Below are positions 1 to 34,677 of a stretch of DNA of 64,000 nt, piece by piece. The stretch is from Azolla caroliniana (taxonomy: Eukaryota; Plantae; Polypodiophyta). The notes under the pieces are model-generated. The model did not search any database. It was not told where the DNA came from and saw only the letters and a list, made by a program, of their open reading frames with translations. The stretch's first letter is position 1. Each line of letters opens with the position of its first letter. Location: contig JBHGNT010000011.1 in assembly GCA_043228905.1 (NCBI GenBank), forward strand, positions 4,836,001 to 4,900,000, given 5' to 3'. Both the position numbers and the translations under genes were made by a program.

Positions 1-1680
1 CTACTACGTCACCATAGCGCATCCCTAACTAATACAGTTTGCACATGTGGGTGCCAAATCTGTCGATCAAGCCCGCAAGAGGAGTGTAAATCATCTGAGC
101 ACGTTATCTCTTCCATGAGTTATTTATTAGATTCAATATTGTGTCCGAGAGAATCTGACGCTATCTTCCATATTCATAAATGTGTCATGGGTTTATGTCA
201 AGATTGTGGCCCTACTAGATTTAGGTGGTGTCCAAATGAATTGAGTAGTGAAATATTGATCTCTGTGAAGTTATTTGAGTCAGTGAACACCAATTTCGAA
301 GGAAAGGTGTGTAAAAGAAAGGATCTAGTTCGGAAGATGCTTAAACCAAGGGATTTGGTGTCTCTGTTTGTAGTATCTCTAGGAAAGTTCATTAAACACA
401 ACTTCATTTATTCATGGCAGGCCCATCAGTTTAAGACTTGCATATCTGATTTCCCAAATGATGTAGTAGTCTCAGTAGTAGATTTCGCAGAGAATTATAC
501 TTTCAAGCAGCAGAATGAAATTCAATCTATGCATTGGTGTTCAGTTCAGGTAACCATTTTTGTGCACATAACATATTTTCGAGTTTCAGGTGATGTTAAA
601 AAAGTAATTCATTTCTTTATTTCCGATGATAAGAAGCATGATACCTTGTTCGTCCAACACTGTTTTAAGTTACATTGGCAGTGGTTATTAGCTCAACGTT
701 TGGAGCTTACTCAACATTGGGTCTGGTCTGATGGAGCTGCGCCACAATTCAAGGCTCGACGTCCATTTTATTTTGTGGGGAGGTATCCTGCTATAACAGG
801 TTTGGAGATGAGATGGAATTTTTTTGGGTCTGGCCATGGTAAAGGTGAACATGATGGTGCAGGGGCTGTTATAAAGCGGGCACTTACCCATGAACAACTA
901 AAGACAGATGGTGTGCACATGAATTGTGCATCACATGTAGTTGAATTTTTAAGAACAAATATGTCGACGAGTGCCACAGGTGTTTATTCCTCGCAAGTTC
1001 GAGATATCAAACGTGAATTTTGGGAAGTGAAGATAGATGAAGTAAATAGGGAGAAGACCTGGGAGTGCCAAGGAATTCCCGAATTGCGATCTCTGCATGC
1101 TGTTCGCGGTTATTCCAGGTTGGATGGTCATTGTATTGCGGTTAGAGAATTGACTTGTTTTTGCTTCCATTGTGTGCAGGGAAATTGGAGATATTGTCTA
1201 AACAAAGCATACATTCAGAATTGGGAGTATCACACTCTGAATGATAAGGAAGCAGTTGATGGAGAAACAGGGCAGAATGCTGACTTCACATATGAGGGAC
1301 TTGGAGATACTTTGAGTGATGTCCTGAACGTTGGGGATAACTTCGCTGTAAATGCTGAAGAAGGCAATTCAGAGGGTGCTGATTTCTATATATTAAAGTG
1401 CACGGTTAGTAAACAGTGTGCAAGGCAGAATATTGTAGATGCATGGGGAAATTTTGTATCTGCCGGGACATTCTACATCGAAGGCATTTTTTATGCAAAA
1501 CTAGATGACTACGAATATGTGTACAGGCTGTTAGAAGACAAACCAGCAGCGTATATGTACTCTCATTTGGTCAGATGCATCAACGTCCCAATGTCAGAAT
1601 ACAATAGCTGCTCCGGTTTATACACTGTTGGTGCTAATGTGTATGAATGTATTTACAATAGTATGCCATGGAATTTGTAG
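1..1680 (+). CDS. Sola2-type DDD transposase, catalytic C-terminal exon (frame open from base 1)
   Basis: Motifs VVDFAENY..QNEIQSMHW...QVT, SDD..HD, WSDGA..QFK and WNFF..GHGKGEHDGAG..IKR give three candidate catalytic Asp residues. Cys-rich segments are present. No stop codon between 1 and 1677. Confidence 0.8.
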   Translation, partial: LLRHHSASLTNTVCTCGCQICRSSPQEECKSSEHVISSMSYLLDSILCPRESDAIFHIHKCVMGLCQDCGPTRFRWCPNELSSEILISVKLFESVNTNFEGKVCKRKDLVRKMLKPRDLVSLFVVSLGKFIKHNFIYSWQAHQFKTCISDFPNDVVVSVVDFAENYTFKQQNEIQSMHWCSVQVTIFVHITYFRVSGDVKKVIHFFISDDKKHDTLFVQHCFKLHWQWLLAQRLELTQHWVWSDGAAPQFKARRPFYFVGRYPAITGLEMRWNFFGSGHGKGEHDGAGAVIKRALTHEQLKTDGVHMNCASHVVEFLRTNMSTSATGVYSSQVRDIKREFWEVKIDEVNREKTWECQGIPELRSLHAVRGYSRLDGHCIAVRELTCFCFHCVQGNWRYCLNKAYIQNWEYHTLNDKEAVDGETGQNADFTYEGLGDTLSDVLNVGDNFAVNAEEGNSEGADFYILKCTVSKQCARQNIVDAWGNFVSAGTFYIEGIFYAKLDDYEYVYRLLEDKPAAYMYSHLVRCINVPMSEYNSCSGLYTVGANVYECIYNSMPWNL

Positions 1681-2200
1681 CTACAAGTAGCACTTACCAT
1701 GTTCTCTTGTAAAACAAACATGTATTTCGCGAAAACAGATCAATAAATTCGTTTGGAATCAATTTCTTGTATACAGTCTGCTTTCTGTGCTTCTTTCTCA
1801 ATAAAATCATGTATTTTTTGTTAAGTTTTAAGTTATAAGTTATAGCGAAATAGTCATCAGTAGCTAATTAGCTGTACAAATGCAGCTAATTAGCTGTACA
1901 AATGTATTTACAATAGTATGCCATGGAATTTGTAGCTACAAGTAGCACTTACCATGTTCTCTTGTAAAACAAACATGTATTTCGCGAAAACAGATCAATA
2001 AATTCGTTTGGAATCAATTTCTTGTATACAGTCTGCTTTCTGTGCTTCTTTCTCAATAAAATCATGTCTTTTTTGTTAAGTTTTAAGTTATAAGTTATAG
2101 CGAAATAGTCATCAGTAGCTAATTAGCTGTACAAATGCAGCTAATTAGCTGTACAAATGCAGCTAATTAGCTGTACAAATGTAGCTAATTAGCTGTCAAT
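1646..2200. repeat. ~255-bp tandem duplication of the transposase stop/3'UTR plus short AGCTAATTAGCTGTACAAATG repeats
   Basis: aatgtatttacaatagtatgccatggaatttgtag... occurs at ~1646 and ~1901. Confidence 0.9.
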
Positions 2201-2326
2201 AGCTAAATAGTCATCAATAGAATGAAATCAACAATCTGCAACATATTCCTCAAATTACATAGTAGATAAGTACAGTGGGAACAAGTAATTAAATTCTTCA
2301 TTGAATAATGTCATCTCTTTACATAT

Positions 2327-5300
2327 TTATAAATTACCATTGGAAATGTCTACAAATCTCCTATAAACAGCTAAGCTCTTGCTAGTCAGTGGAACGAGTC
2401 TACATATATTATCCGCATATTGAGCTCGGTATGGAGTCCACAACCATGCACCTAGTTGGCAGCTCACTGTTTGCACCAGGTACTGTTCAGGCATTTCCTC
2501 GGGTAGAATGAGACAGCATCTCCGAATATTGAAGTAGTGTCGGAAATGTTCTGTATCCAAAATCAATGTATTGTCAGCATTATATTCAGGCCAAGTAGCC
2601 CAAAAATCAGAAAGCCTCTTGAATCTTGCAGCTTCCATCTGCTCACAATTTTCTCGTGCCCATTGACCTTTAAAACGACTTCGCCATTTTGGGAAGAATC
2701 TTGCCAAACACTTCCACACATCTGATTTTGGTTTCTCACTCCAAATAAACAAATCGAAGTACTCCGCAGCCCACTCTAGAAACTGATTTGCGTCCCTCCT
2801 TGGCTGCATATATCTCACACTCATCAAGACTTTATCCAGCTCCAAGATCAAGGCTCTTCGCTCGACTTCTAGTGGTTTAGGTTTCCATTCCTGAAACTGA
2901 GCCGCTGTTACACCATTTTCTGGTAGGATACGATCAATCTCAATCAGCTCAGGTTCGGCTGACACAACTGGTGTCCTTTTCCTCTTTAAACCCCTAGTCG
3001 ACTGTGTTGGGCCTAGCTTCACATTCTGGTGCTCTTGTTTTGTCGACTTAGTTATCAATCCTTGGATTACCTCAGTGCATGTAGCTACTGTTCTGCTCGA
3101 TATCAATCCACTGGTATCACATGCTGCATCTACCTGCAACACCAAGTCATCCGTGCTACATGCTGCATCTACCTGCAACACCAAGTCATCCGTGCTACAT
3201 GCTGCATCTACCTGCAACACCAAGTCATCCGTGCTACATGCTTGATAAACTTGTGTGACCAGATCACTTGTGTCAGTTGCTACATCTACTTTCAAGATGG
3301 GGCCCTTTAAACATGCCGCAACATCAACAGTATCCACACTGCCATTGGCCTTACGAGCAATAGAATCAAACCCTTTAGACTCTGCAACATCAGAAAACAC
3401 CAACATATTCACACTCACAAAGTAACTACTAGTCTCACAAAACAATATCCTGAACATCAAAGAGTTTCAGTCATAGAACAACACTCTTCAAATTATCTTG
3501 GAAAAACATCATAGAGTTCCATTACATAATGTGGATCAAGCAACAACCAATCTGAGGTTTTACTTGTCCAACAGGATAGTAAAACTTCATAAAACCCTAG
3601 CAAAATCCCTAAGCTAACAATCATATCCAACTAAACAGTATTTCGCTCCACTACGTCTGGGCCCCTTGACCGAGTAACTGGTCTTGTTCCCGATCGTGGC
3701 CCCTTCTTCAGCCTTTTTCTGGTTGGTTCCCCATTTAGCCTTGCTTCTAGGACCCAATGCGCAAGTGTGTCCTCCTCCGACAACCTTCCCATCGCCTCAG
3801 CAGCTAATTGCACATCAGCCGTTTCTTGAACTAGCTTTTCAAGTACAGAGGGATCTGTTTGGACATTTTCAGTAGTTGGGCTCGGTGGGGTGGAATCAAG
3901 GTCTTGAGACTCGAAGAAATGTTGCATCAAGTGTTCATAAACACTGTTGTTGTGAACCTCAGTTTTACATGTTGTTTCCACTATTTCATGGCATTTCACA
4001 TCGTTGCCTAATTCAGTACACTGTTCCAAAAGAATAGGGTGCAGCTGATCTGAAGGAGATGTGATAGCAGGACTCTTACTTTCAGCCACATTGGCAGTAG
4101 TATCCTCATCTGTTGCAGCATCATCAGCACCAGACACATCATGTGCCGTCCTTAATCCACAAGATTCTACAATAACATGACAGTTATTTAGGATAGCTAA
4201 TTAGCTACTTTACTAAACTATGGTAGAAGCTAGGATAGCTAATTAGCTAGTACGATAGCTAATTAGCTAGTATGATAGCTAATTAGGTACTTTACTCAAC
4301 TATGGTAGTAGTTAGGATAGCTAATTAGGTACTTTACTCAACTATGGTAGTAGTTAGGATAGCTTATTAGCTACTAGGACAGCTAATTAGCTGCCAGTAG
4401 CTAATTAGCTACTAGGATAGCTAATTAGCTGCCAGTAGCTAATTAGCTACTAGGATAGCTTATTAGCTACTTTACACAACTATGGCAGTAGCTACTAGGA
4501 TAGCTAATTCGCTAGAAGGATAGCTAATTAGTTGCCAGCAGCTAATTAGCTACTAGGATAGCTAATTAGCTACTAGGATAGCTAATTAGTTGCCAGTAGC
4601 TAATTAGCTAGTAGGATAGCTAATTAGGTACGTTACTCAACTATGGTAGTAGCTAATTAGCTAGTAGGATAGCTAATTAGCTACTTTACTCAACTATGGT
4701 AGTAGCTAATTAGCTAGTAGGATAGCTAATTAGCTACTAGGATAGCTAATTAGCTGCTAGTAGCTAATTAGCTACTAGGATAGCTTATTAGCTACTTTAC
4801 ACAACTATGGCAGTAGCTAATTAGTTACTAGGATAGCTAATTAGTTGCCAGTGGCTAATTAGCTAGTAGGATACCTAATTAGCTTTTTTACACAACTATA
4901 GTACTAGCTAATTAGCTAGTACCATAGCTAATTACCTACTAGGATAGCTAATTAGCTAGTAGGATAGCTTATTAGCTACTTTACACAACTATAGTAGTAG
5001 CTAGGATAGCTAATTAGCTACTATGGTAGCTAATTAGCTACTTTACTCAACTATGGTAGTAGCTAGGATAGCTAATTAGCTACTTTATTAACTATGGTGG
5101 TAGCTAGGATAGCTAATTAGCTACAATGAAAGCTAATTAGCTACTTTCTCAACTATGTAGTAGCTAGGATAGCTTATTAGCTACTAGGACAGCTAATTAG
5201 CTAGTAGGATAGCTAATTAGCTACTAGGATAGCTAATTAGCTACTTTACACAACTATGTCAGTAGCTAATTAGCTACTATGATAGCTAATTAGCTAGTAG

Positions 5301-8183
5301 GATAGCTAATTAGCTAGTAGGATAGCTAATTAGTTGCCAGTAGCTAATTAGCTAGTAGGATAGCTAATTAGCTTTTTTACACAACTATGGTACTAGCTAA
5401 TTAGCTAGTACCATAGCTAACTAGCTACTAGGATAGCTTATTAGCTACTTTACACAACTATGTCAGTAGCTAATTAGCTACTATGATAGCTAATTAGCTA
5501 GTAGGATAGCTAATTAGCTAGTAGGATAGCTAATTAGTTGCCAGTAGCTAATTAGCTAGTAGGATAGCTAATTAGCTTTTTTACACAACTATGGTACTAG
5601 CTAATTAGCTAGTACCATAGCTAACTAGCTACTAGGATAGCTTATTAGCTACTTTACACAACTATGTCAGTAGCTAATTAGCTACTATGGTAGCTAATTA
5701 GCTAGTAGGATAGCTAATTAGCTAGTAGGATAGCTAATTAGTTGCCAGTAGCTAATTAGCTAGTAGGATAGCTAATTAGCTAGTAGGATAGCTAATTAGC
5801 TTTTTTACACAACTATGGTACTAGCTAATTAGCTAGTACCATAGCTAACTAGCTACTAGGATAGCTTATTAGCTACTTTACACAACTATGTCAGTAGCTA
5901 ATTAGCTACTATGGTAGCTAATTAGCTAGTAGGATAGCTAATTAGCTAGTAGGATAGCTAATTAGTTGCCAGTAGCTAATTAGCTAGTAGGATAGCTAAT
6001 TAGCTTTTTTACACAACTATGGTACTAGCTAATTAGCTAGTACCATAGCTAACTAGCTACTAGGATAGCTTATTAGCTACTTTACACAACTATGGCAGTA
6101 GCTAATTAGTTACTAGGATAGCTAATTAGTTGCCAGTGGCTAATTAGCTAGTAGGATAGCTATTTAGCTTTTTTACACAACTATGGTACTAGCTAATTAG
6201 CTAGTACCATAGCTAATTAGCTACTAGGATAGCTAATTAGCTAGTAGCTCATTAGCTGCCAGTAGCTAATTAGCTAGTAGGATAGCTAATTAGAAAAGAC
6301 TAAGCTTATTAGCTACAGTATGGTATACCTGTTTGTTTTCTCCACTCATTTGGTAGAGTTGTACTGCAATCTCCCAAACAGAATGCAGCAATTCGACAGG
6401 CATGTTGAAAACAAAGCAGATGGTATGTGTGGTTGCATGGTTGTAGGTGAACCAACAAAGACGCAGTTTTGTCCTCCACACCTAACCCGCAAGCGATGCA
6501 ACGTGCTTGAACTGTCAATAAATCATTTTCTGGTTCTACTTCATTTGGTAAGGGAGCAAGAATGTTCAGGTCCAAATCCTGTCTGGTCCTTACCATTCCC
6601 TCCACAAAATGTAGCTTCTTCTTAAGGCAGCTAACTACCTGTTCTTGATGAATGTATTGTTCCTTCAACGCAACAGAGAAATTTACCGATTAATTATTCT
6701 TGTTGTTGAAAGATACACCAACTTTGCTCAGGAATCGTTAACTTACTTGAAGCTTATCCAAATTGTAATCTGCAACAGTATTTACACCTAGAAGGTCCAG
6801 GTTCATTGAAAGAACCTGGATCTCTATTTGCAGTTCTATTTTACGCTGGGGATCCAGTGGCCCCTCTAATTCAAGCTCCTGTTGCGTAACCTATTCCAGA
6901 TAATGCTTGATTAGCACATTTTACCCGTTATTTATAACACAATCACATACCAGCAAAACAATAGTTACCTGAATCTTATTTCTAATTGTTGTAACAGCAG
7001 AAGTAATTTTGCTCTCCATTGCAGAAGCCATTGTGGCTTTCTCTAAATCAGTCTTAAAAAATGCCAATGTCTCACAGGCTTCATGGACATTTTTTAGCAT
7101 ATAGCTAACAAATGTCTCACCTGTATCATCGACATTGGCTTTCCTTGGGTGTCGGTGTGGTGTATGCCCCCGGTCTTGCTGGGAGTCGGCAGTTGCATCA
7201 ACAGCTGCCATGCTCCAAAATCTGTCTATTTTTTGTGCCAAGGTCCCCATCTTTCGGCATCTTTTTACCGATGCCTCACCATAGACTGCCCAAGCTACCC
7301 TATACATTTCAGGGTCTCTAGATTCCTTCGCTGTTTTGCAGTACTCATATGCAAATGCTCTAGCAAATGAAACTGACAACTCATTGTTGACTGGGATCTC
7401 CTGATGAACTTTCTGGTGCAGTCTCATGCAGTCATCGTACAAGTCGGCTCGTACATGCTTCAGCTTGACCTTGCCTTTGACTCTAGGCACTGTATATACT
7501 GTCATCCAGTCTATATCACTGATCAATTTATCACTTAGGACAGCAGGGTCAACACCCTCGAGTGACAGACCATAGGTGTTGTGGAAGTCCTCCTTTGTCT
7601 CGCAAAATTTTGCGAAGTTTAGCACTCTCGTATACGGAGGAACGAGCCATCTGAAATATCATTTCAGAAATCAGAAATAGTGCAAAATCAGAATATGTGA
7701 GAATCAAAAACCCCAATCAACAACAACAAAAATGGTGCAAAATCTTTAACTTAACCTAATCAAAATCTGTAATCAGAAGTTTGAAATCAGAAACCCTAAT
7801 CAAAATCTGTAATCAGAAGTTTGTAACCAGAAACCTTATTCAGAAATTCTAATCAGAAATTTATAATCAAAAACCCTAATCAGAAATTTCAATCAGAAAC
7901 CCTAATAAAAAATTTCAATCACAAACCCTAATCAGAAATCCTAAGCAGAAATTTATAAACAAAAACCCTATTCAGAAATTCTAATTTGTAATCAAAATTT
8001 GTAACCAGAAACCCTATTCAAAAATTCTAATCAGAAATTTATAATCAAAAACCCTAATCAGAAATTTCAATCACAAACCCTAATCAGAAATTTCAATCAC
8101 AAACCCTAATCACTAAAGACAGGATTAAACACAAAAAAAGTAATATAAACACACCTGTTGCTACTCCCCGATTTGCGAGACAT
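2327..8183 (-). CDS. Predicted six-exon TE accessory protein (~776 aa): N-terminal domain, coiled coil, RING finger, repeat linker, degenerate FCP1/NIF-like HAD phosphatase domain
   Basis: Exons 8183-8155, 7650-6969, 6890-6747, 6662-6329, 4166-4080 and 3381-2327 are all bounded by GT/AG with compatible phases (2331 nt in total). RING: CIAC...PCNHTYHLLC...C...C. HAD-like: LILELDKVL...FLEW...FDLFIWS...W.R..C...NTLILDT. The splice model is inferred. Confidence 0.65.
3118..3241 (-). repeat. In-frame 39-bp tandem repeat (QVDAACSTDDLVL x3)
   Basis: catgctgcatctacctgcaacaccaagtcatccgtgcta is repeated three times; copy 2 has a single unit. Confidence 0.9.
4190..6292. repeat. Intronic tandem array built on the palindrome TAGCTAATTAGCTA (~20-bp units, ~204-bp higher-order repeat)
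   Basis: Dozens of agctaattagct cores. The landmark tttacacaactatgtcag recurs at 5245, 5449, 5653 and 5877. Confidence 0.95.
7680..8112. repeat. Degenerate telo-box (AAACCCTAA) tandem repeat in an accessory-gene intron
   Basis: About nine AAACCCTA motifs embedded in aatcagaaa units; homologous array at 30700-31190. Confidence 0.85.
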
Positions 8184-8637
8184 CCTTGTATGGGACTCCA
8201 AGGACTTCGCCCTATTCGATTTTGGGGAAATATGAATCGGCACCAAAGTTCAGACAGTAGTCAAAAAGAAAAAACAAATGTTTGGGGTTTCTGTAACTGA
8301 AACATACCTGGACGATGATCGAGCGGGTTCTGTGTTGTAGCTCTCAATCTGCAATGTCGATTTTTTGCTGTTGCGGGAGCTACGTCTGCGTTCGTGCTCT
8401 GAGTACTCCATCTGCGTTCAAAATCAGACTTAGGCTAAACAGGAAATTGATGACATTGAAGTCGACCTTAGATGATGGTGATATTCCCCAAGTTCCACTA
8501 CGTCTGAAACAGAAGTTCAAATATTTGAGTTTTTTCATAAATTAGTTTTTCAAATATTTGATTTTCCCACAAGAAAGACTAGCTAAACAAATAGCTAATT
8601 AGCTATGGCCATTTTAGTAGCTAATTAGCTATAATAG

Positions 8638-8662
8638 TGTTTCCACTCGCATGCTTTTACCC
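8638..8662 (-). repeat. Right terminal inverted repeat of Sola2-like copy 1
   Basis: tgtttccactcgcatgcttttaccc is the reverse complement of gggtaaaagcatgcgagtggaaaca. Confidence 0.85.
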
Positions 8663-10480
8663 TATAACCGAAGAGCTAGTCGGCTACACCGATGCCGATT
8701 GGGCCGGCGATGCATCGGATCGCAGATCCACCTCCGGCTATATGTTTTCCCATGGTAACACAGTTGTTGCGTAGAGCAGCAAAAAGCAGCCAACAGTGGC
8801 CCTTTCGAGCACTTAGGCTGAATACCGCAACGCTATCGTTGCCACCTATGAAGCCATTTGGCTTCAGTGACTGCTGCAAGACCTGCGTGTGGATCGAGGT
8901 GCCAACCCCGATCTTGATCTACTGCGATAACATAAGGAGCATGTAGCTCACCAAGAACCCCGTATTCCATGCTTGCACGAAGCACATAGAAGTGCACTAC
9001 CACTTCGTGCGTGAGCGTGTCATGAGCGGGAAGTCGAACTTCGGTATGTTCATACGGATCGGCAAGTTTCCGACATCTTCACCAAACCGCTCGGTTCACC
9101 AAATGATGTTGCGAAGATTCGCGCGTGCGTGTGCTACTCGAGCGACCACCGGGGTCTTGGACTGGGGAGGATGTTCGCGGAATTATCGAAGAGATGACGA
9201 TCAATGTAAGATTAGACGGAATTTGTTCACTTGAGAAGAAGAAAGCTTGTACACTTGAGAAGTAGAAAATAATGAAGAAGATAAAGACAAATATAATTAT
9301 ATTGATGATAATGGTGTTGGTGATATCACATATTGAGCCCCCCTTACACAAGCCCAACTAGAGGCTTTTATAGGTCTTTCCATGCTTGTGACATGCACAA
9401 AACCATGAGCTAAAACCATGGTTTTGTGCACACGGTTTTGCTTATGTCATGCACAAACCATGGGTTTAAAACCATGATTTTGTGCACATGGTTTTCTATG
9501 GTTGTTTCGTCTATAATTTGTATATGAAAAGGAAATACATAAAATCTACACTATATGATAGTTGTCCTAGTGGTAAGGCAATTATCTTGTATCTTAGAGG
9601 TGCAAGGTTCAATCCTTGCTCGCACCCCTCTGTATGAACTCAAGTGCCACTAGGCCTTAGGAGGCTTATTTGCTAAGTGTATGTGCAATGTTGCACATCC
9701 TTGGTTTATTCGTCTCACTCGGTTTCACACCGTAGCCGAAAATCATCACGACAACGTGCAGCACTTCACCGAAATGCTTGGTGTTCAGCATCTCGACGTG
9801 CCACTCTTGAGGGGGAGAATGGGCAAAGACACCGGAATGGGCAAAGGCAAAGAAATTGTCGATTGCGTCGGTGAGGGAAGAATCGACAAAGGGAGAGACA
9901 AGAAGAAGAAGGCCAAGACCCGGACATGGTCGATTGTGGTGAAGGGCCTAGAACCGGAAGACGAATCGGGATTGATTGATTCAGAAAAGAGCTGGAACGA
10001 ATAAGAGACAACTGATTCGGTTCAACAGACGGATTCAGAAGAACCGGATCAATTCAAGGCCAAGAGGATGAGAAGGTAGAGAAAGTCGACGACAACACAA
10101 AGGACTCGGCGAATCGGCAAGCGCCGAAGTCACAAGAACGAGGGAGCTGAATTGGGCCTGTTGAGCAGACAATCCGACAGCGGAGGTCGAGGTGCGTAGA
10201 ATCAGAAGGGGCGCGGCAAACAGGACCGAACTGGACGAGGAGCGCGAGTGAGGCTGAGTGATGCCAGAAGGAGCCGGGTGGAAGAACCGACTACCATGGA
10301 GACTGACACTACGATCCGACCTCAACTTGATCTTGAGGGGGAGTGTTGAGCGGCAAGCTCAACCGGATCTGGATCGGCAAAATAAGCCTGAGCCGGATCG
10401 GTGAGCCGGTGAACCGGGGAACCTGCTAGCCGGATCCAGCAGTAACCGGAAGAGTAGTAGTAGCCTAGACTTCTAGGTAA
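8663..10480 (+). mobile_element. Ty1/copia 3' fragment (RNaseH, charged 3' extension, PPT, partial 3' LTR from 10344), interrupted at ~9092-9753
   Basis: [23 protein letters not shown] and DIFTKPLG motifs; gagggggag|TGTTGAG junction; LTR similar to 62418-62790. Confidence 0.85.
9092..9753 (-). mobile_element. Isolated LTR (9107-9753) with remnant tRNA-Trp PBS, non-chromovirus Gypsy-type
   Basis: Termini TGTTGCGAAGAT...ATCATCACGACA resemble the 59444-60463 LTR. cggttcacca lies just outside the LTR; TATA at ~9365-9373. Confidence 0.7.
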
Positions 10481-20000: not shown

Positions 20001-20789
20001 GCGGAAACAGGGGCAACAACCGAAGGGAAGAGCCGGACCGGAGTCAACTGAACAAGGGGGAGATGAAACCAAGAAGGGCAAGAAGGACAAAACCAAGACA
20101 TGGTTTGATGTGGTTAAGGGCCTGAAGACAGAAGACGAATTGGAGACAGCCAATTCGGGCAAGAGCGGAAACGAATCGGAGACAACCGATTTGGTTCAAA
20201 TGTTCAATTCGAAGACGCCGAATCAATTGAAGGCCAACGGAGGAAAGGGTTGTGGAAGAGGTGCCAACACCGTGACAGCAAGGGAGCTGAGAAAGCCAGC
20301 ACGAGCAGACAAGCCGTTCGAAAGGGTCGAGGCACACGGAATCGGGGTTGAGGAGCGCGAGCAAGGCGTGAAGCTAGGTGAAACTGGAACAAAGATCTGG
20401 AAGAGTAGGCGGAACCTCAAGTTGAGCTCGAGGGGGAGTGTTGAGATACAAGCTCAACATTGGGTGTGTAAACCGGGAGGTCGTTGGATAGATATTCCAT
20501 GGAGGAATATATTTTTGGGAGTTAGGTAGGGGCTCATTGATGAGAATTGAAGTACGTGTCAGTACTTCTGTCAGTCTATATGGACTTGTATAAAAGTGTT
20601 CTCTAAGCACATCCTATGTACAAAGTTTTAGAGTATTATTTTGGAATAGAGTTTTCTGTGTTCTGCTCTCTTTGTCTCTCCCGTGTATATTGTGTTGATT
20701 AAGCTTTCCATTAAACCTTCCTTGTCTCTTGTCTTTTGTGTGTGGTTACCCGATTGTGTTTGTTAAGCTTCCGCACGTATTCTTTTGCA

Positions 20790-21559: not shown

Positions 21560-22845
21560 TGTAAAAAGAATAGCATGCGGAAGCAATAGAAAACCGAACA
21601 CAGAAACGCAGGTTTAATGGAGAGCTTGAATATACATGGTACGCGGGAGAGACAGACAGTGAGAGAGAGAATGCACACAAACTCAATTCAAAAAATTATA
21701 CTCAATCTGTACATAGGATGTGCTCAGTGAGCACTTTTATACAAGTCCATATGCTCGTAAGTGAGCTCTACACTAACTCCAAAATATATTCCTACGCGGA
21801 ATATCTTTCCAACGGCCTCGCGGTTTACGCACCGCTATGCCTTCTCGTTGCGCACCTGTTTACACACCTGGTTTAAGCACCCGATCCGGTCTAACCGATC
21901 AATCCCAACCGATCCGATTCTCGACTTGCACAGCCGATCCGGCCAATGTTGAGCTTGTATGTCAACACTCCCCCTCAAGCTCAACTTCAGGTTCCATCCG
22001 CTCTTCCAGATCTATGCTCCAGTTCCTTCTAGCTTCACGCCTTGCTCACGCTCCTCGACATATTCGATTCCGCACGCCTCGACCCTTCCGGTCGGCTTGT
22101 GTGCTCGTGCGGCCCTCCTCAGCTCTGTTGTTGTCGTGGTGTTGGCGCTTCTTCTGCTGCCTTCTCTTCCGCTTGGCCCTCAGTTGATTCGATGTATCCG
22201 AATCAAGCGTTCGAAGCAACTCGGCTTCCTCCGATCGGTTTTCGCTTTCGTCCGAGTTGGCTGTCTCCAACTCGTCTTCGGTCTTCTCGCCCTTGATGGC
22301 TTCGTCTCCCCCACGTTTGGTTGGCTTCGGCTCTTTCTTTCGATTGCTCCCCTTATATCCGCTTTCAGAATCTTCCGCAGATTTGCCCTCGGCTTCTTCA
22401 GTCAATCCGAAATCGAATTCGTCATCCGACTCGGCGTCGCGGTCTTCTGGAACTTCTCTCTGGGTGAAAGCATGAGAGTGGAAACAATTAGCTATGTCCT
22501 TGACATAGCTAATTAGGTATGCAAAAAGCTACCATTGATAAATAGTCATTTTAGCAAAAATCCATCATTAATAAATTAACTATGCAAAAAAATACCATTG
22601 AAAATACTAGAGTGTTTTAATTACATATGTAAATGAGCACCATAAATGTGCAACATAAACGTGCAACATAAATTGATATGTGCACCATAAATTATATATT
22701 GAATTCCTAGGTCCATTATGCATGATCCTTTGCCACATCACGTAGGCCATCTCTAGTTGAGTATTGTGGGTTAGTTGCTACCACTATTGCTAAACCCTAT
22801 TGAGTCCACCTGCCGCCACTCTACACTTAGGGGCCGCTACTGTGC

Positions 22846-23056
22846 GTTCCAAGCATCATCAGTAACTGTTCAATCTGACGGGGTTCTCTTCTCTGTGCCA
22901 CTTTACACTCAGGGGCCACCACTGTGAAGATCGTGTATTGTTGCCACTTTTCGACCCGACGGCGTTAACAACTCCACTGCCGCCATTCTACTCTGAGGTG
23001 CCTTCTCTGTGTGTTCCAAGCATCATCAGTAACTGTTCAATCTGACGGGGTTCTCT
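22846..23056. repeat. 44-bp direct repeat in the transposase 5' leader
   Basis: gttccaagcatcatcagtaactgttcaatctgacggggttctct at ~22846 and ~23013. Confidence 0.85.
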
Positions 23057-23389
23057 CCTCCATTGCCATCATTCTACACTCAGTTGCCGCTACTGTCCAG
23101 TCCTGGATTGCTTCCACATTTCGATTTGACGGAGTTCACTCATCCAACGACAACATTCTACACTCAATTGTCACCATTGGTCGGTCCTGGATCGCCTCCT
23201 GAACTGTTTGATCCAACGGAGTGAACTCCTCTACTGTTCGGTCTTTGATTGCAATAACTTTTCTGTCTATTGTTTATCTTGTGTATTGTTGTGTCTAATC
23301 TTGTGTATTGTGGAATATTTTTGTGTCTTGTTGTTGCCCATAGCCATCTTAAATACTTGTTTTTTTCTCTGGAAATTTAGGGTTTTAAT

Positions 23390-24123
23390 ATGTCCAGCCA
23401 AATGGAAGGGGAAGAAGGGTGTTTAGAATTACCCCTCAATGATCATAAGGATAGGGATGATGCTATCAGGACACAACAAGCCATACGAAACTATTGGGTA
23501 GAAAAAAAAAGGAAACATTGTCAATTGTTGAAGGATACGAAAGCTACACTCAGTAAAGGTAAGGATAGTTTAGCTGAGAATGTAAGTAATGCGACTACCA
23601 TCATAGAGAGAAAGGTTGTAGACTATTTCAATGTTCAAACCAAGCACATCAGCAATGAAGAAAAGAAGGTAGTACTTTATGGAATATTAAATGATCCATC
23701 GATAAAGGACTTAGTTGATTGTGATGGTCTTAATGCAAACATATCATCTATTTTAGTAAATAATCTTCGTAATAGTTTTGTATCCATGAGCAGGTCAGAA
23801 GATGATCTTGTCTTAAAAAGGTCTAGTCTAATGATGTTACTTAATAGTGATGTTGACGATATAAAAAGGTAATTGGTGTTAGTAGAAAAACAATGTACAA
23901 TACAATGAACCGTATAATTTCCTCGGGTGAAGGAACTAGTCTACTAAAGCTAACTACAAGATGTAAGCCAATGACACCCATAACATTTGAAATCAAGGAT
24001 GTAATCACAATGTTTTGGACTAATGAGAGTAGGGTTTCACCCAATAAAAAGGATTTATGCAGGAAACGTGTTGGAAGAAATCAATATGAGGAGCATCCCA
24101 TTCATCTTCTTGATGTACCTCAG
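23390..24123 (+). pseudogene. Transposase N-terminal exon of copy 2 (1-nt frameshift near 23865)
   Basis: The ATG follows an AG acceptor at ~23380. Repairing the A-run gives the HTH-like ..VIGVSRKTMY.. and then SRVSPNKKD..RKR; donor CAG|GTATTT at 24124. Confidence 0.65.
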
Positions 24124-24167
24124 GTATTTACATTTATCTCAACATTTGTTTTGACTCTACACGGAAA

Positions 24168-24862
24168 GTTAATTAGCTCAGTTAGCAGAAAAGCTAATTA
24201 GCTTATCAGTTACATTTACCTCAGTTAGCTACTAGGATAGCTACTACATAGGTAACTCGCTACTCTCAATAGCTACTACCATGATAGCTAATTAGCTATT
24301 CTCAATAGCTACTACATAGGTAACTGGCTACTCTCAATAGCTACTACCATGATAGCTAATTAGCTATTCTCAATAGCTACTACATAGGTAACTGGCTACT
24401 CTCAATAGCTACTACCATGATAGCTAATTAGCTATTCTCAATAGCTAATTTAGTTACTACCGGATAATTAGCTACCAAAATAGCTAACTAGCTACCATGA
24501 TAGCTAATTAGCTATTCTCAATAGCTAATTTAGTTATTACCAGATAATTAGCTACCAGAATAGCTAATTAGCTTTTAGGATAGCTAATTAGCTATTAGAA
24601 TAGGGTTTTAGCTACCATGATAGCTAAATAGCTACTAGAATAACTAATTAGAATAAGTAGTTAGCTAATTAGCTATTAGAATAGGTAATTAGCTACCATG
24701 ATAGCTAATTAGCTACTATGATAGTTAGTTACTCTAGTTATTACCAGCTAATTAGCTACCATGATAGCTAATTAGCTACTAGAATAGCTAACTAGCTACT
24801 AGAATAACTAATTAGCTACCATGATAGCTAATTAGCTACTAGGATAGCATATTAGCTACTAG
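24168..24862. repeat. TAGCTAATTAGCTA palindrome array in the transposase intron
   Basis: Same core palindrome with different spacers (ccatga, actaga, ttctcaa). Confidence 0.9.
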
Positions 24863-24869
24863 AGGAGTG

Positions 24870-26077
24870 TAAATCTATCGATCAAGCCCGCAAGAGTAGT
24901 GTAAATCATCTGAGTACGTTATCTCTTCCATGAGTTATTTATTTGATTCAATATTGTGTCCGAGAGAAACTGACGCTATCTTCCATAGTCATAAATGTGT
25001 CATGGGTTTATGTCAAGATTGTGGCCCTACTAGATTTAGGTGGTGTCCAAATGAATTGAGTACTGAAATATTGATCTTTGTGAAGTTATTTGAGTCAGTG
25101 AACACCAATTTCGAAGGAAAGGTGTGTAAAAGAAAGGATCTAGTTCGGAAGATGCTTAAACCAAGGGATTTGGTGTCTCTGTTATCCTGCTATAACAGGT
25201 TTGGAGATGAGATGGAATTTTTTTGGGTCTGACCATGGTAAAGGTGAACATGATGGTGCAGGGACTATTATAAAGCGGGCACTTACCCATGAACAACTAA
25301 AGACAGATGGTGTGCACATTAATTGTGCATCACATGTAGTTGAATTTTTAAGAACAAATATGTCAACAAGTGCAACATGTGTTTATTCCTCGCAAATCCA
25401 AGATATCAAACGTGAATTTTGGGAAGTGAAGATAGATGAAGTAAATAGGGAGAAGACCTGGGAGTGCCAAGGAATTCCCGAATTGCGATCTCTACATGTT
25501 GTTCGGGGTTATTTCCAGGTTGGATGGTCATTGTATTGCGGTTAGAGAATTGACTTGTTTTTGCTTCCATTGTGTGCAGGGAAATTGGAGATATTGTCTA
25601 AACAAAGCATACATTTAGAATTGGGAGTATCACACTCTGAATAATAAGGAAGCAGTTGATGGAGAAACAGGGCAGAATGCTGACTTCACATATGAGGGAC
25701 TTGGAGATACTTTGAGTGATGTCCTGAACATTGGGGATAACTTCGCTGTAAATGTTGAAGAAGGCAATTCAGAGGGTGCTGATTTCTATATATTGAAGTG
25801 CATGGTTAGTAAACAGTGTGCAAGGCCGAATATTGTAGATGCATGGGGAAATTTTGTATCTGCCGGGACATTCTACATCGAAGGCATTTTTTATGCAAAA
25901 CTAGAGTCTACGAATATGTGTACAGGCTGTTAGAAGACAAACCAACGGCGTACATGTACTCTCATTTGGTCAGGTGCATCAACGTCCCAATGTCAGAATA
26001 CTATAGCTGCTAATTTTATACATTGTTGGTGCTAATGTGTATGAATGTATTTACAATAGTATGCCATGGAATTTGTA
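24870..26077 (+). pseudogene. Disabled transposase core of copy 2
   Basis: Matches 55-1680 but has a ~416-bp deletion at ~25182 removing the DFAENY and SDGA motifs, plus frameshifts and stops. Confidence 0.9.
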
Positions 26078-28371
26078 GCTACAAGTAGCAATTACCATGT
26101 TCTCTTGTAAAACAAACATGTATTTCGCAAAAACAGTTAAACATGTTCGTTTGAGAATCAGTTTCTTGTATACAGTCTGCTTTCTGTGCTTCTTTCTCAA
26201 TAAAATCATGTCTTTTTTGTTAAGTTTTAAGTTATAAGTTATAGCGAAATAGTCATCAGTAGCTAATTAGCTGTCAATAGCTAAATAGTCATCAATAGCT
26301 AATTAGTTGTATTCAGGCTTACTCAGGTTTACCAGAATAGCTAATTAGCTACCATGATAGCTAATTAGCTACTCCAATATTGCAATCAACCAGTAGCTAA
26401 TTAGCTGTCAATAGAACCATGTACAACAGTATGCCATGAAACTTGTAGCTACAAGTAGCAATTACCATCTTTTCGTGTAAAACAAACATGTATTTCGAAA
26501 ATACAGTTAAATAAAGCACTAGCATGAAATCAACAATCTGCAACATATTCCTCAAATTACACAGTAGATAAGTACAGTGGGAACAAGTAATTAAATTCTT
26601 CATTGAATAATGTCATCTCTTTACATGTTTTTAAATTACCATTGGAAATGTCTACAAATCTCCTATAAACAGCTAAGCTCTTGCTAGTCAGTGGAACGAG
26701 TCTACATATATTATCCGCATATCGAGCTCAGTATGGAGTCCACAACCATGCACCTAGTTGGCAGCTCACTGTTTGCACCAGGTACTGTTTAGGCATTTCC
26801 TCGGGTAGAATGAGACAGCATCTCCGAATATTGAAGTAGTGCCGAAAATGTTTTGTATCCAAAATCAATGTGTTGTCGGCATTATATTCAGGCCAAGTAG
26901 CCCAAAAATCAGAAAGTCTCTTGAATCTTGCAGCTTCCATTTGCTCACAATTTTCTCGTGCCCATTGATTGACCTTTAAAATGACTTCGCCATTTTGGGA
27001 AGAATCTCACTAAACACTTCCACACATCTGATTTTGGTTTTTCACTCCAAATAAACAAATCAAAGTATTGCACAATCCACTCTAGAAACTGATTCGCGTC
27101 CCTCCTTGGCTGCATATATCTAACACTCATCAAGACTTTATCAAGCTCCAAGATCAAGGCTCTTCTTTCGACTTCTAGTGGTTTAGGTTTCCATTCCTGA
27201 AACTGAGCCGCTGTTACACCATTTTCTGGTAGGACACGATCAATCTCAATCAGCTCAGGTTCGGCCGACACAACCCCTAGTCGAGTGTGTTGGGCCTAGC
27301 TTCACATTCTAGTGCTCTTGTTTTGTCGACTTAGTTATCAATCCTTGGATTACCTCGGTGCATGTAGCTACTGATCTGCTCGATATCAGTCCACTAGTAT
27401 CACATGTTGCATCTACCTGCAACATCAAGTCATCCGTGCAACATGCTTGATCAACTTGTGTGACCAGATCACTTGTGTCAGTTGCTACATCTACTTTCAA
27501 GATGGGGCCCTTTAAACACACCGCAACATCGACAGTATCCACATTGCCATCGGCCTTACGAGCAATAGAATCAAACCCTTTAGACTCTTCAACATCAGAA
27601 AACACCAACATATTCATACTCACAAAGTAACTAGCAGTCTCACAAAACAACATCCTAAACATCAAAGAGTTTCAGTCATAGAACAACACTCTTCAAATTA
27701 TCTTGGAAAAACATCATAGAGTTCCATTACATAATGTGGATCAAGCAACAACCAATCTGAGGTTTTATTTGTCCAACATGATAGTAAAACTTCATAAAAC
27801 CTTAGCAAAATCCCTAAGCTAACAATCATATCCAACTAAACAGTATTTCGCTCCACTACGTCTAGGCCCCTTGACCGAGTGACTGGTCTTGTTCCCGATC
27901 GTGGCCCCTTCTTCAGCCTTTTTTTGGTCGGTTGCCCATTTAGCCTTGCTTCTTTCACCCAATGCGCAAGTGTGTCCTCCTCCTACAACCTTCCCATTGC
28001 CTCAGCAGCTAATTGCACATCAGTCGTTTCTTGCGCTAGCTTTTCAAGTACCGAGGGATTTGTTTGGACATTTTCAGTAGTTGGGCTCGGTGGGGTGGAA
28101 TCAAGGTCTTAAGATTCGAAGAAATGTTGCATCAAATTTTCATAAACACTATTGTTGTGAACCTCAGTTTTACATGCTGTTTCCACTATTTCATGCCATT
28201 TCACATCGTTTCCTAATTTAGTACACTACTCCAAAAGAATAGGGTGGAGCTGATCTGAAGGAGATGTGATAGCAGGACTCTTACTTTCAGCCACGTTGGC
28301 AGTAGTATCCTCATCTGTTGCAGGACACATCATGTGCCGTCCTTAATCCACAAGATTCTACAATAACATGG

Positions 28372-29341
28372 TAGCTATTTAGGATAGCTAATTAGCTACT
28401 TTACTAAACTATAGCAGTAGCTAGGATAGCTAATTAGCTACTTTACTCAACTATGGTAGTAGCTAGGATAGCTAATTAGCTACTTTACTCAACTATGGTA
28501 GTAGCTAGAATAGCTAATTAGCTACTTTACTCAACTATGGTAGTAGCTAGGATAGCTAATTAGCTACTTTACTAACTATGGTAGTAGCTAGGATAGCTAA
28601 TTAGCTACTTTACTAACTATGGTAGTAGCTAGGATAGCTAATTAGCTACTATGGTAGCTAATTAACTACTTTACTCAACTATGGTAGTAACTAGGATAGC
28701 TAATTAGCTACTTTACTAACTATGGTAGTAGCTAGGATAGCTAATTAGCTACTTTACTAACTATGGTAGTAGCTAGGATAGCTAATTAGCTACTTTACTC
28801 AACTATGGTAGTAGCTAGGATAGCTAATTAGCTACTTTACTCAACTATGGTAGTAGCTAGGATAACTAATTAGCTACTATGGTAGCTAATTAGCTACTTT
28901 ACTCAACTATGGTAGTAGCTAGGATAGCTAATTAGCTACTTTACTCAACTATGGTAGTAGCTAGGATAGCTTATTAGCTACTAGGATAGCTAATTAGCTG
29001 TCAGTAGCTAATTAGCTAGTAGGATAGCTAATTAATTGCCAGTAGTTAATTAGCTAGTAGGATAGCTAATTAGCTTTTTTACACAACTATGGTACTAGCT
29101 AATTAGCTACTAGGATAGCTAATTAACTACTTTACACAACTATGGTACTAGCTATGAGTAGCTAATTAGCTAGTAGCTAACTAGTTGTCACTTAGCTAAT
29201 TAACTACTGTAGTAAACTATGGCAGTAGCTAATTAGCTAATAGGATAGTTATTAGCTGCTTTAATCAACTATGGTAGTAGCTAATTAGCTACAACGATAG
29301 CAGCAAAATAGTTTCCATACTTTTTACGGCTTAGCTAATTA
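28372..29341. repeat. Intronic palindrome array of copy 2 (42-43-bp unit)
   Basis: ctaggatagctaattagctactttactcaactatggtagtag repeated about a dozen times. Confidence 0.95.
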
Positions 29342-30699
29342 GAAAAGACTAAGCTTATTAGCTACAATATGGTATACCTGTTAGTTTTCTCCACTCATTT
29401 GGTAGAGCTGTATTGCAATCTCCCAAACAGAATGCAGCAATTCTACATGCATGTTGAAAACAAAGCAGATGGTATGTGTGGTTGCATGGTTGTAGGTGAA
29501 CCAATAAAGACGCAGTTTTGTCCTCCACACCTAACCCGCAAGTGATGCAACGTGCTTGAATTGTCAATAAATCATTTTCTGGTTCTCCTTCATTTGGTAA
29601 GGGAGCAAGACTGTTCGGGTCCAAATCCTATCTGCTCCTTGCCATTCCCTCCACAACATGTAGCTGCTTCTTAAGGTAGCTAACTACCTGTTCTTGATGA
29701 ATGTATTGTTCCTTCAACGCAACAGAGAAATTTACCGATTAATTATTCCTGTCTGAGAAAGATACACCAACTTTGCTCAGGAATTGTTAACATACTTGAA
29801 GCTTTTCCAAATTGTAATCTGCAACAATATTTACACCTAGAAGGTCCAGGTTCATTGAAAGAACCTGGATCTCTGTTTGCAGTTGTATTTTACGCTGGGG
29901 ATCTAGTGGCCCCTCTAATTCAAGATCCTGTTGCGCAACCTATTCCAGATAATGCTTGATTAGCACATTTTACCCTTAAAGTTATTTATAACACAATCAC
30001 ATACCAGCCAAACAATAGTTACCTGAATCTTATTTCTAATCGTTGTAACAGCGGAAGTAACTTTGCTCTCCATTGCAGAAGCCATTGTGGCTTTCTCTAA
30101 ATCAGTCTTAAAAAATGCCAATGTCTCATAGGCTTCATGGACATTTTTTAGCATATAGTTAACCAATGTCTCACCTGTATCATCGACATTGGCTTTCCTT
30201 GGGTGTTGGTGTGGTGTATGCCCCCGGTTTTCTAGGAGTCAGTAGTTGCATCAACAACTGCCATGCTCCAAAATTTGTCTATTTTTTGTGCCAAGGTCCC
30301 CATCTTTCGGCATCTTTTTACCGATGCCTCACCATAGACTGCCCAAGCTACCCTATACATTTGAGGGTCTCTAGATTCCTTCGTTGTTTTGCAGTACTCA
30401 TATGCAAATGCTCTAGCAAATGAAATTGACAACTCATTGTTGACTGGGATCTCCTGATGAGCTTTTTGGTGCAGCCTCATGCAGTCATCGTACAAGTCGG
30501 CTCGTACATGCTTCAGCTTGACCTTGCCTTTGACTCAAGGCACTGTATATACTGTCATCCAGTCTACATCACTTAGGATAGTAGGGTCAACACCCTCGAG
30601 TGACAGACCATAGGTGTTGTGGAAGTCCTCCTTTGTCTCGCAAAATTTTGCGAAGTTTAGCACTCTCGGATACGAAGGAACGAACCATCTGAAATATCA

Positions 30700-31190
30700 T
30701 TTCAGAAATCAGAAATAGTGCAAAATCAGAATATGTCAAAATCAGAAACCCTAATCAACAACAACAGAAATAATGCAAAATCATTAACTTAGCAAATCAG
30801 AAACCCTAATCATAATTTGTATTCAGAAATTTGAAATCAGAAACCCTAATCAAAATCTGTAATCAGAAGTTTGAAATCAGAAACCCTAATCAAAATCTAT
30901 AATCAGAAGTTTGTAACCAGAAACCCTATTCAGAAATTCTAGTCAGAAATTTATAATCAAAAACCCTAATCAGAAATTTCAATCAGAAACCCTAATTAGA
31001 AATTTCAATCACAAACCCTAATCAGAAATTCTAATCTGTAATCAAAATTTGTAACCAGAAACCTTATTCAGATATTCTAATCAGAAATTTATAATCAAAA
31101 ACCCTAATCAGAAATTTCAATCACAAACCCTAATCAGAAATTTATAAACAAAAACCCTAATCAAAAATTTCAATCAAAAACCCCAATCAT
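30700..31190. repeat. Telo-box tandem repeat, copy 2
   Basis: aaaccctaatcagaaa units homologous to 7680-8112. Confidence 0.85.
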
Positions 31191-34100
31191 CACTAAAGAC
31201 AGGTTTAAACACAAAAAAAGTAATATAAACACACCTGTTGCTACTCCCCGATCTGCGAGACATCCTTGTATGGGACTCCAAGGACTTTGCCCTATTCCAT
31301 TTTGGGGAAATATGAATCGGCACCAAAGTTCAAACAATGGTCAAAAAGAAAAAACAAATGTTTGGGGTTTTTGTAACTGAAACATACCTGGACGATGATC
31401 GAGTAGGTTCTGTGTTGTAGCTCTGAATCTGCAATGTCGATTTTCTCCTACTGCGGGAACTACGACTTGGTGAAGATGTCGGCGGTCTGCCGATTCGTCG
31501 GAACATACTGAAGTTCAACTTCACCGGAGAGGACACGCTCATGGACGAAATGGTAGTGCACCTCAATGTGCTTAGTCCGAGTGTGGAAGACGGAGTTCTT
31601 TGCTAGCTGGATGTTGCTGAGGTTGTCGCAGTACATTGTCGTTGGATCGGATACCTCCACCTGCAGATCCTTAAGTAGCTGCTTCAACCATATGGCTTCG
31701 CATGTCGTGACAACTGCTCCTCTATACTCGGCTTCGGTGCTTGACAACACAACTGTCGGCTGCTTCTTGCTACTCCACGCAATCGCGACACTCCCAAGGG
31801 AGAATGCGAAACCAGACGTGGATCGGAGATTGGCGACGTTGCCGGTTCAATCGATATTAGTGTCGCCGACCAACGACGGGGCTGTACTGGTCTGATATAG
31901 TAGCCCCCGGTCCTTAGTGCCGCTTACGTACTGCAGTACGTGTTGCGCACATTGAAGGTGCTCCTCGGTAGGTCGAGCCATGAATTGACTAATCACCCCG
32001 ACCGGGTAGCTGAGATCTGGTCGGGTGATGATCACGTATATAAGGCTCCCAACTATCTGTCGAAACCTCGTCGAGTCACATACCTCTCCGGAATCGGGGT
32101 GAAGCTTGACGGTTCTATCTAGAGGAGTCGAGACGGACTTACAGTCGGCCATCCCGAATTTGAACAACATACTCAACACGTAATGTCGTTGGCTGATCAG
32201 TATGCCTTTAGGGGTGTGAATCACTTTGATCCAGAGGAAGTAATGAAGGTCCCCCAGATCCTTCATGTCGAACGATGCCGCAAGCTGGAGCTTGACGCGG
32301 TCAATTTCACCTAGGTCGGCGTCGGTGATGACCAAGTCATCAACATAAAGTAAAATGCTAAACGGCCCGAGTCGACCTTTCCAGATGACGAGTGAGGAGT
32401 TCGATTTTGACGTCGCAAAGCCCATCTGATGCAATCGTTGTGCGATCTTCGAGTTCCAGGCACTCGGGACTTGCTTTAGTCCGTAAAGGGACTTCTTCAA
32501 TCGGCACACCGCCAATGTGTTTGTTCCGAACTGAAATCTGGGGGGTTGTACCATGTACACCTGTTCCTCAAGCTCACCTTGCAGGAATGCATTCTTTACA
32601 TCCATATGGTGTAAGTGTCACCCCTTCGCCGTAGCTACTGCGAGCAAAACGCGGACGATCATAATTTTTGCGACCGGTGCAAATGTCTCATCGTAGTTGA
32701 TGCCGTGTTGCTACGCGTAGCCTTTCGCTACTAACCGGGCCTTGTATCGGTTGACCGAGCCATAAGTGTTGTACTTGACTTTGTACACCCACCTACATCA
32801 ATCGGCTTCACACCTTTAGGTGCATCCACCAGGTCCCACGTTTCATTTTCCGCCAATGCGAGCATCTCTTCCTCCATTGCTGCACGCCAATTCGCATCCT
32901 TCGCCACTTCTGCGTAGCTCTCCAACTCACGCACTTCCGCCACACGCGCCATGTACGCATAGTGATGCGCCATGTACTCGTTGTAACCGAACCGCACAAC
33001 AGGGTTCTTCTGGCGAGTAGATCGGCGTAATTGCTCATTCGCCGATGTTGAGGCTTCTTTGGCCGACACGGACTTCGCTCTCGAAGACCTGTCATCACTT
33101 CCCTCGAAGTCGGACTCGCGTCGATTCAACTCTTTCCTATCCGTGCCGTAATCCAACACCTTCTTCTTCCCTTTTTCCTTGCGCGTAAGACGTTTCCTCG
33201 ATTTCCTGCGCGGGGAATGCACGATCAAGTCTCCACTACTCGCCGACTCTTCTTTGGACTGGTCAAACCGACTCAGTTTTCCATTCGGTGCACTTAACCA
33301 AAACGAGATCGGACCCTCTTCGAGGGTCCCGATTTCACCTTCATCCAGAGGCACTTCCGCCTCATTGACCTCATCGTTAGAGCTCAGATTGGAGTTGAGG
33401 TACGGAGTCGTAGGCAAGTACCAGGACGCGGACTCGTCAAACACAACGTCACGGCTCACGCGAGCTTGTTTGGTTTGGGGGTTATAGCACTTATAACCCT
33501 TCTCCTTGTCCGGATAGCCGACTAAGATACACTTCTCAGCTTTTGCGCCGTAAACTCTCAAGTGTCGTAGATTCGGCTTCCTTCCGAAATACACCTCATG
33601 CGCTGACACTTTGTCTTCGATCCAATTCTAAATGTACACCGCAATTCGTATCGCCTCGGCCTAATAGAACTTGTGCAAGCTCTTTTCTTCCAGCATTGCC
33701 CGTGCCACTTCCACAATCGACCGATTCTTCCTTTCGGCCACGTCGTTCTGTTCCAGCGTATATCTGCAACTGAATTCGCACTGAATTCCCATCTATTGCA
33801 AATACCCGTTGAATTGACTGGAAAAGTACTCTTTTCCGCCATCTGACTGCAAGCACTTGATCCTTCTCCTGTTTCCCTTTCGACGAGATTCTTGAGGTCT
33901 CGGAAACAGTCGAAGATTTCACTCTTCTTCTCAATGAGGTAGATCCACGTGTGTCGTGTATAGTCTTCGATGAAGGAGACGAAATATCGACTCCCGCCAA
34001 GACTAACGTTCTGTGTCGGCCCCCATACATCCGAATGTATCAAGTCGAGCTTGTTCCGGCTCTAGTTATGCTCGTTAGGGAAAGGAAGTCGGTGTTGCTT

Positions 34101-34677
34101 CCCTAACTGGCAGGCTTCACAAATTTGTGCCTTGCTGCCACTAAATTTGGGCAATCTGAACACAACTTGTTTCGATTGCAGGTCATCAAGCCGTTGATAG
34201 TTGACGTGGCCTATCCTCTTGTGCCATAAAGTCAATATCCGACTCGACTTTTTGTACTTTCGCGAACATTGCGGTGCCACGGTCACTAGAGTTGAGGATA
34301 AACATCCTCCCGTTTCTGCGCCCTTGTGCAATAACTCGGCCTTCTTCCTCGATGAAGCACCCGAGATGCGTGAACCGGACTTGCATCCCCTGGTTGACGA
34401 TCTACCTGATCGACACCAGATTCTTAGTGATTGTCGGGACCTGTAACACGTTCATGAGTTTCCCTTTCTGCCCGACATGGGGAACTTCACCGACATTCGC
34501 GATTGGATGCGGAGTGTCGTGTCCGGTTGCAACTACTCCCGGTTGCATCGGTTTCTCAAGGTATGAGAACCACTCCTTGTGGCACGTCATGTGGTTTGAT
34601 GCGCCGGAGTCGACGTACCACACCTTGTTTGATTCAGGGTGGACTTCTTCATTGAGTTCGCTTCGTGTCTCGTTACG

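Follow-up and report, generated by a model that had tools for sequence, protein, structure and literature searches.

Does a fern transposon carry a protein that reads its own non-coding DNA? The window, a 64,000-nucleotide stretch of Azolla caroliniana contig JBHGNT010000011.1, holds an element in which a transposase gene faces a second gene (gene 2) and a single palindrome recurs in and around both. Transposons that counter silencing in a sequence-specific way are proven among MULE and Spm elements of flowering plants. We asked whether this layout represents a further case, or whether the palindromes and gene 2 are better explained by transposition, by processes that involve no bound protein, or by capture of a host fragment.

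A Sola2-type transposon and its copies

Joined with the neighbouring stretch (L011), the window yields a complete Sola2-type DNA transposon of 12,352 bp (copy 1), bounded by 25-bp TIRs (GGG...CCC) that are identical at 24 of 25 positions and flanked by TATA on both sides (Table 1). Sola2 termini follow a 5'-GRG rule. The window alone pairs the left TIR of copy 2 with the right TIR of copy 1. Self-comparison together with the neighbouring stretch confirmed the original prediction of two colinear copies and its pairing of the TIRs; its extents were correct in that both copies exist and needed revision in that copy 1 starts 3,690 bp earlier and no right TIR was found in copy 2 (22462-31464), which also has an internal deletion, lacks part of the transposase and contains frameshifts. 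The 4-bp TSD proposed for the family was matched in seven of the eight copies having both ends, the exception (B_C11) being flanked by TCTC and TCCT. Across 47 right flanks, 137 of the first 188 bases (four per flank; 73%) are A or T, with no strict AWWT.

The transposase, 863 aa long with a single intron of 1,436 bp, has its DDD triad at residues 465, 548 and 589 (codons at window positions 481, 730 and 853), and is thus the spliced DDD enzyme first proposed. It gave no hit in a Pfam search; Pfam domains are absent from Sola transposases according to the accessible part of PMC5751038. In a comparison by eye with part of the published Sola2 alignment (PMC3627910 Additional file 10), the motif order is the same, through the string GKKD..KRLL, LRP..VCVC.YH, CxxxxCxxC, DFAENY..Q.EIQS.HW, SDG.A.Q.K and HGK..DG.G. 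Short TIRs, a 4-bp, somewhat AT-rich TSD and an RNase H-like fold are further likenesses, and the structure model of the transposase weakly matches RNase H-like integrase cores. On the motif string, the triad and the TIR/TSD we assign the transposase to Sola2, as had been suggested. Its named relatives come from Ceratodon, Cryptomeria, Taxus, Klebsormidium and Mytilus. A well-predicted beta-rich domain lies at the C-terminal end (window 1300-1680, residues ~440-555 of the window ORF).

Searching the 523-Mb genome with a 267-aa transposase query returned at least 144 scored matches at 96-100% identity (at least 1,420 first-look candidates). The nine top-ranked copies are colinear and mostly more than 99% identical in their coding parts. 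This is a Sola2-type cut-and-paste family of 12.4 kb that has recently multiplied and, even without anti-silencing, an autonomous Sola family that was active very recently in a land plant.

Several minor features accompany these copies. Copy 1 is inserted within decayed Copia-like pol sequence (window 8663-9130; L011 5250-5310), and copy 2, at its broken right end, adjoins another Copia-like pol piece at 31465. A GC-richer 83-bp tandem repeat of variable copy number, unrelated to the palindrome, sits upstream of the transposase ATG (L011 5664-6357, element 354-1047; window 22805-23231). A short hairpin follows the left TIR directly on its inner side (window 22486-22520; counterpart at L092 1790-1845); its arms changed together between the copy-1 family and L092. 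Some young copies have 255 bp spanning the transposase 3' end and UTR duplicated in tandem (window 1640-2159). The window also holds two pairs of long, diverged repeats (11876-16273 with 35190-39556; 17089-20232 with 31466-34259), probably the bodies of LTR retrotransposons.

Unlike published Sola2 members, the copy-1 family belongs to a plant lineage, measures 12.4 kb and carries a multi-exon second gene and kilobase intronic arrays. The original prediction introduced Sola2 as a transposase-encoding element, but cargo is published as well, namely Fanzor1 in Sola2 (PMC3627910, excerpt); in the related Sola1 group, Sola1-1_Ec32 of Ectocarpus carries a ParB-methyltransferase accessory gene (PMC12477816, excerpt). 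As far as that excerpt describes it, Sola1-1_Ec32 resembles our element in its large size and in having an accessory gene, on the opposite strand, with a proposed action on the element's own DNA, but it is Sola1 rather than Sola2 and its accessory protein is unrelated to gene 2. Among 1,007 genomes surveyed, Ginger and Sola together account for 9 of the 3,203 active clusters (PMC12973397, excerpt). Judging from the available parts of these papers, Sola2 itself is not new, nor are Sola elements in plants, where they are rare (PMC12973397), or Sola accessory genes of a different kind (PMC3627910, PMC12477816). A literature search outside Repbase found no description of gene 2 or of motif arrays in Sola2, nor any paper giving Sola2 such an ORF.

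Table 1 Coordinates of transposon features in the window
Feature	Position	Strand	Remarks
Copy 1, right 8.66 kb	1..8662	+	Starts 3,690 bp before window; left TIR in L011 at 5311
Transposase exon 2	1..1680	+	Begins 161 bp before window; DDD codons inside; dN/dS 0.15 (95% CI 0.10-0.24)
Inter-gene palindromes	1861..2195	.	6 sites between convergent genes
Gene 2, predicted terminal exon	2327..3381	-	NIF/FCP1-like domain, ELDKV replacing DxDxT/V; dN/dS 0.28 (95% CI 0.16-0.53)
Gene 2, predicted exon 6	3631..4166	-	Acidic linker, basic end, stop; dN/dS 0.64 (95% CI 0.34-1.24, includes 1)
Large intronic array	4194..6315	.	90 sites, mostly 20-bp spacing, almost no CG
Gene 2, predicted exon 5	6329..6662	-	Coiled-coil end and RING-H2 pattern; dN/dS 0.27 (95% CI 0.13-0.49)
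Gene 2, exon 4	6747..6890	-	Helical; adjoining intron 6891-6968 skipped in contigs of three runs
Gene 2, exon 3	6969..7650	-	Conserved domain X (~7210-7615) and coiled-coil start; dN/dS 0.21 (95% CI 0.13-0.36)
Gene 2, exon 2	8155..8211	-	Introns on either side skipped in contigs of two runs
Gene 2, exon 1	8308..8411	-	Predicted ATG at 8411
Subterminal palindromes	8592..8631	.	Two, adjoining right TIR
Right TIR of copy 1, 25 bp	8638..8662	.	Followed by TSD TATA at 8663-8666
Copy 2	22462..31464	+	Older, broken; left TIR 22462-22486; arrays 24191-24858 and 28385-29364

A convergent second gene and the selection on it

Gene 2 is convergent with the transposase gene, and all introns of its model are GT-AG. 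Probable RNA contigs from runs X1, X2 and X4 skip three of these introns, one of 78 bp (three runs) and two of 504 and 96 bp (two runs); the contigs come from one study, are presumed to be RNA and are ~95% identical, and the long ones depart from the element at 6847. As predicted from sequence, the RING exon can be joined in frame to exon 6 (618 aa), to the NIF exon (791 aa) or, via an internal donor, to both (820 aa). Forms with and without NIF probably arise from splicing downstream of the RING exon, and exon 6 is predicted to be an alternative terminal exon or partly intronic.

Exon 5 encodes a putative RING-H2 finger, C-x2-C-x17-C-x-H-x2-H-x2-C-x10-C-x3-C, with eight Cys/His ligands in C3H2C3 order; its Pfam RING score (E 0.098) is below the cut-off, and E3 activity is a prediction from the pattern. 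The NIF domain is recognised by Pfam (E 1e-7). The catalytic DxDx(T/V) is missing from this NIF-like domain, which has ELDKV instead, and the relatives P0241, P0301, L094 and L095 have DLNG in the same place. The convergent, spliced gene with a RING/pseudophosphatase pattern was foreseen in the original prediction, which overlooked the most distinctive part, domain X. This helical domain of 135 aa matched no Pfam family and has at least 138 relatives at E<=0.001 among 1.84 billion representatives. A search of solved structures with its AlphaFold model (pLDDT 94) gave no significant match, VANC21 (9lnj) included (Foldseek E 8.2, TM 0.29). With 23 K+R and 19 D+E, domain X is mildly basic. Pfam detected no DUF1985 in the gene-2 protein or its relatives.

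By eye, the domain X consensus resembles what we take to be the PMD pattern, a lead only; domain X (~135 aa) and 19 relatives gave no hit to Pfam PMD up to E 10. The combination of X, coiled coil, RING and NIF recurs in the Adiantum proteins P0241 and P0301, one predicted chain each, and all named gene-2 relatives are from Adiantum, which by itself would point to a fern as the likely host. Many 'hypothetical proteins' of ferns that lack annotation may be explained by this family. Intron 2 of gene 2 (window 7686-8112; also 30706-31189) is a 13/40/53-bp tandem repeat rich in AAACCCTA, which we take to be a telobox. Teloboxes are described as Polycomb response elements in the accessible part of bioRxiv 2024.09.27.615353.

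The linkage of the two genes is as constant as had been supposed. Gene 2 is present in 9/9 top-ranked copies picked by their transposase (all five tested exons in eight) and in 19 of 20 low-ranked ones (all five in 15). In the reverse direction, eight of ten copies picked by NIF keep at least 78% of transposase exon 2. Measured against the majority of 5-22 older copies per exon, dN/dS is 0.21-0.28 in the domain X, RING and NIF exons (Table 1). Purifying selection acts on gene 2 in these three domains, as the original prediction of a ratio below 1 required.

Palindrome arrays in the element and its relatives

The 14-bp palindrome TAGCTAATTAGCTA occurs exactly 76 times in the window, against 0.01 expected. 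At up to two mismatches, full copy 1 has 156 sites: 57 in the transposase intron, 90 in the one that follows the RING exon, six between the two genes and further ones near both TIRs, the distribution originally described. None of the 156 falls within the 5.5 kb of predicted exons. The main spacing is 20 bp in young copies and 33 and 19 bp in old ones, and the core is kept. With one half-site as anchor, conservation of the partner half in old copies is 76-92% on the plus strand, compared with 34-60% for the flanks; on the minus strand it is 60-86%, where the excess over the flanks is less clear. The array introns measure 1.1-1.5 and mostly 1.8-2.5 kb in young copies and tend to be shorter in older ones (0.5-1.2 and 0.7-1.75 kb).

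A scan for relatives gave 78 loci in 42 transposase groups, six of them with a convergent gene-2 part. Two of the six, L094 and L095, have NIF, beside transposases 44-47% identical; L095 shares 79% identity with Adiantum P0301. Another two, L101 and L166, have RING (E 1e-5), and the remaining two, L105 and L107, an X-like ORF (HH probability 84%, E 7.5e-6) that the HMM missed. Of 23 relative loci with at least 2.3 kb downstream, five have a gene-2 domain, L095 being additional, so gene 2 is widespread, though perhaps not universal. Separately, four loci have a convergent ORF that, like exon 6, is acidic, turns basic at its end and is followed by a stop: L092 (7110-7601), L094 (4148-4729), L152 (2634-3203) and L101 (3769-4524). 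Three of the four end in a TRS-like motif.

As judged from their sequences, many distant plant Sola2 lineages have their own, different repeated non-coding motif. In the transposase intron equivalent to that of copy 1, L092 has 27 sites of TACTAATTACCA (raw count) and L091 a repeated motif of its own, differing from that of copy 1. L094 has 16 sites of TGCTAACTAGCA just upstream of transposase exon 2 (raw count), TACCAATATTGGTA repeats downstream of the stop in L098, another intron holds ATTAGTACTAAT in L119 and L146, and TGCCACATGGCA is repeated in L141, L144 and L156. In L101 the motif is non-palindromic and lies in the intron after the RING exon, a place matching copy 1.

Among low-frequency variants in 17-38 copies per region outside the arrays, C-to-T changes per 1000 site-copies number 33.5 in CG, 45.8 in CHG and 4.7 in CHH. 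The CG and CHG excess indicates that most copies have been methylated. Any protection from silencing, if real, is partial, local or transient.

What may act on the palindromes

One reading, to which we give somewhat less than an even chance, is that domain X reads the palindrome and the RING and dead NIF target proteins of chromatin or transcription there, keeping some copies expressed. The gene-2 protein would bind the palindromes through domain X, a candidate DNA reader, and the coiled coil could let it recognise a two-fold symmetric site. The RING would recruit ubiquitination, and the catalytically dead NIF might dock onto phospho-proteins, the Pol II tail perhaps among them. Chromatin action at the arrays would then keep the element's genes expressed, and arrays could grow by slippage, raising binding-site density, as described for VANDAL. 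In favour of binding by gene 2 we count the layout shared with VANDAL/VANC and Spm/TnpA, the non-coding position of 156/156 sites, the linkage and the selection, together with the half-site conservation under shifting spacing, the recurrence of the domain set in Adiantum proteins and of its parts beside distant transposases, and the differing motifs that relatives have at like positions. Against it stand the mild basicity of domain X, its lack of a fold match to VANC21, the methylation of copies and the motif adjoining the TIRs, as well as the small share (5 of 23) of relative loci having a gene-2 domain and the limits of the spliced contigs given above.

Known systems resemble this arrangement in part. 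VANC21 binds motifs amplified as tandem repeats in intronic, intergenic and terminal non-coding DNA, and the Arabidopsis VANDAL MULEs likewise combine an accessory gene with a short, family-specific amplified motif (PMC5735166, excerpt). They differ in transposase superfamily (MULE there, Sola2 motifs here); the RING and NIF domains are additions in our element, and motif binding or demethylation by gene 2 is so far inferred. The proposal of a VANDAL-like layout with unrelated parts, as a possible anti-silencing module, is supported in part; it had missed the differing motif arrays of the relatives. Spm TnpA requires dense family-specific motif clusters (bioRxiv 2026.08.24.746577, excerpt). 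It too is an element-encoded factor with the motif near the ends as well (bioRxiv 10.64898/2026.08.24.746577, excerpt), but TnpA has tandem HTH motifs derived from a transposase and binds termini, whereas here the sites are mostly intronic and the gene is unrelated. MAIN, MAIL1 and MAIL2 share a transposon-related helical domain, PMD, tied to DNA motifs, one of them palindromic (accessible part of bioRxiv 10.1101/2024.09.27.615353).

More tentatively still, Sola2 elements of seed-free plants (ferns and others) may carry an old, independent anti-silencing system in which a new-fold DNA reader, a RING ligase and a pseudophosphatase co-evolve with family-specific intronic arrays, a third invention beside VANC and TnpA. 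If true, the design arose repeatedly and now extends to a third superfamily and to seed-free plants, and the RING and pseudophosphatase would point to a mechanism unlike that of VANC. Lineage-specific motifs and domain X would offer natural protein-motif pairs for specificity swaps.

Alternatively, the palindrome could be a transposase-binding site and gene 2 a MURB-like transposition or targeting helper, or a ubiquitin ligase against a host factor. Palindromes adjoin both TIRs, positions at which a transposase would be expected to bind as well; the TIR, subterminal hairpin and array motif of L092 changed together; and arrays occur in lineages where gene 2 was not found (e.g. L119, L141). There are also precedents, in the available parts of the sources, in transposases acting as sequence-specific activators (bioRxiv 2026.08.24.746577) and in the MURA-MURB interaction shown for MuDR (PMC12973397). 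We nevertheless regard this as rather unlikely, as 147 of the 156 sites lie in two introns distant from the element ends, one of them inside gene 2, and the L101 array likewise occupies a gene-2 intron.

It is less probable again that the arrays are not protein sites at all, being slippage products, sources of RNA hairpins or small RNAs, or a means of avoiding CG methylation, with gene 2 lacking sequence specificity. Array length does range from 0.5 to 2.5 kb among copies, only 0.8% of cytosines in the gene-2 array are in CG against 17.5% expected, and RNA from ~1 kb of the array folds at z = -17.9, as expected of any palindrome array. Such processes fit poorly with a core conserved while spacers change, with isolated single sites retained at both ends, and with unrelated motifs at equivalent positions elsewhere, some non-palindromic (L101, L092).

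That gene 2 is a neutrally carried host fragment of the Pack type is highly improbable and largely refuted, although NIF is a host-type domain: dN/dS well below 1 and constant linkage speak against the one-off capture considered at the outset, as does recurrence of the architecture's parts beside transposases 37-48% identical. The other point in favour of capture is that, in the old subfamily, dS is 0.30-0.46 in the gene-2 domain exons, about double the 0.14-0.20 of the transposase, an excess that suggests modules were exchanged between subfamilies.
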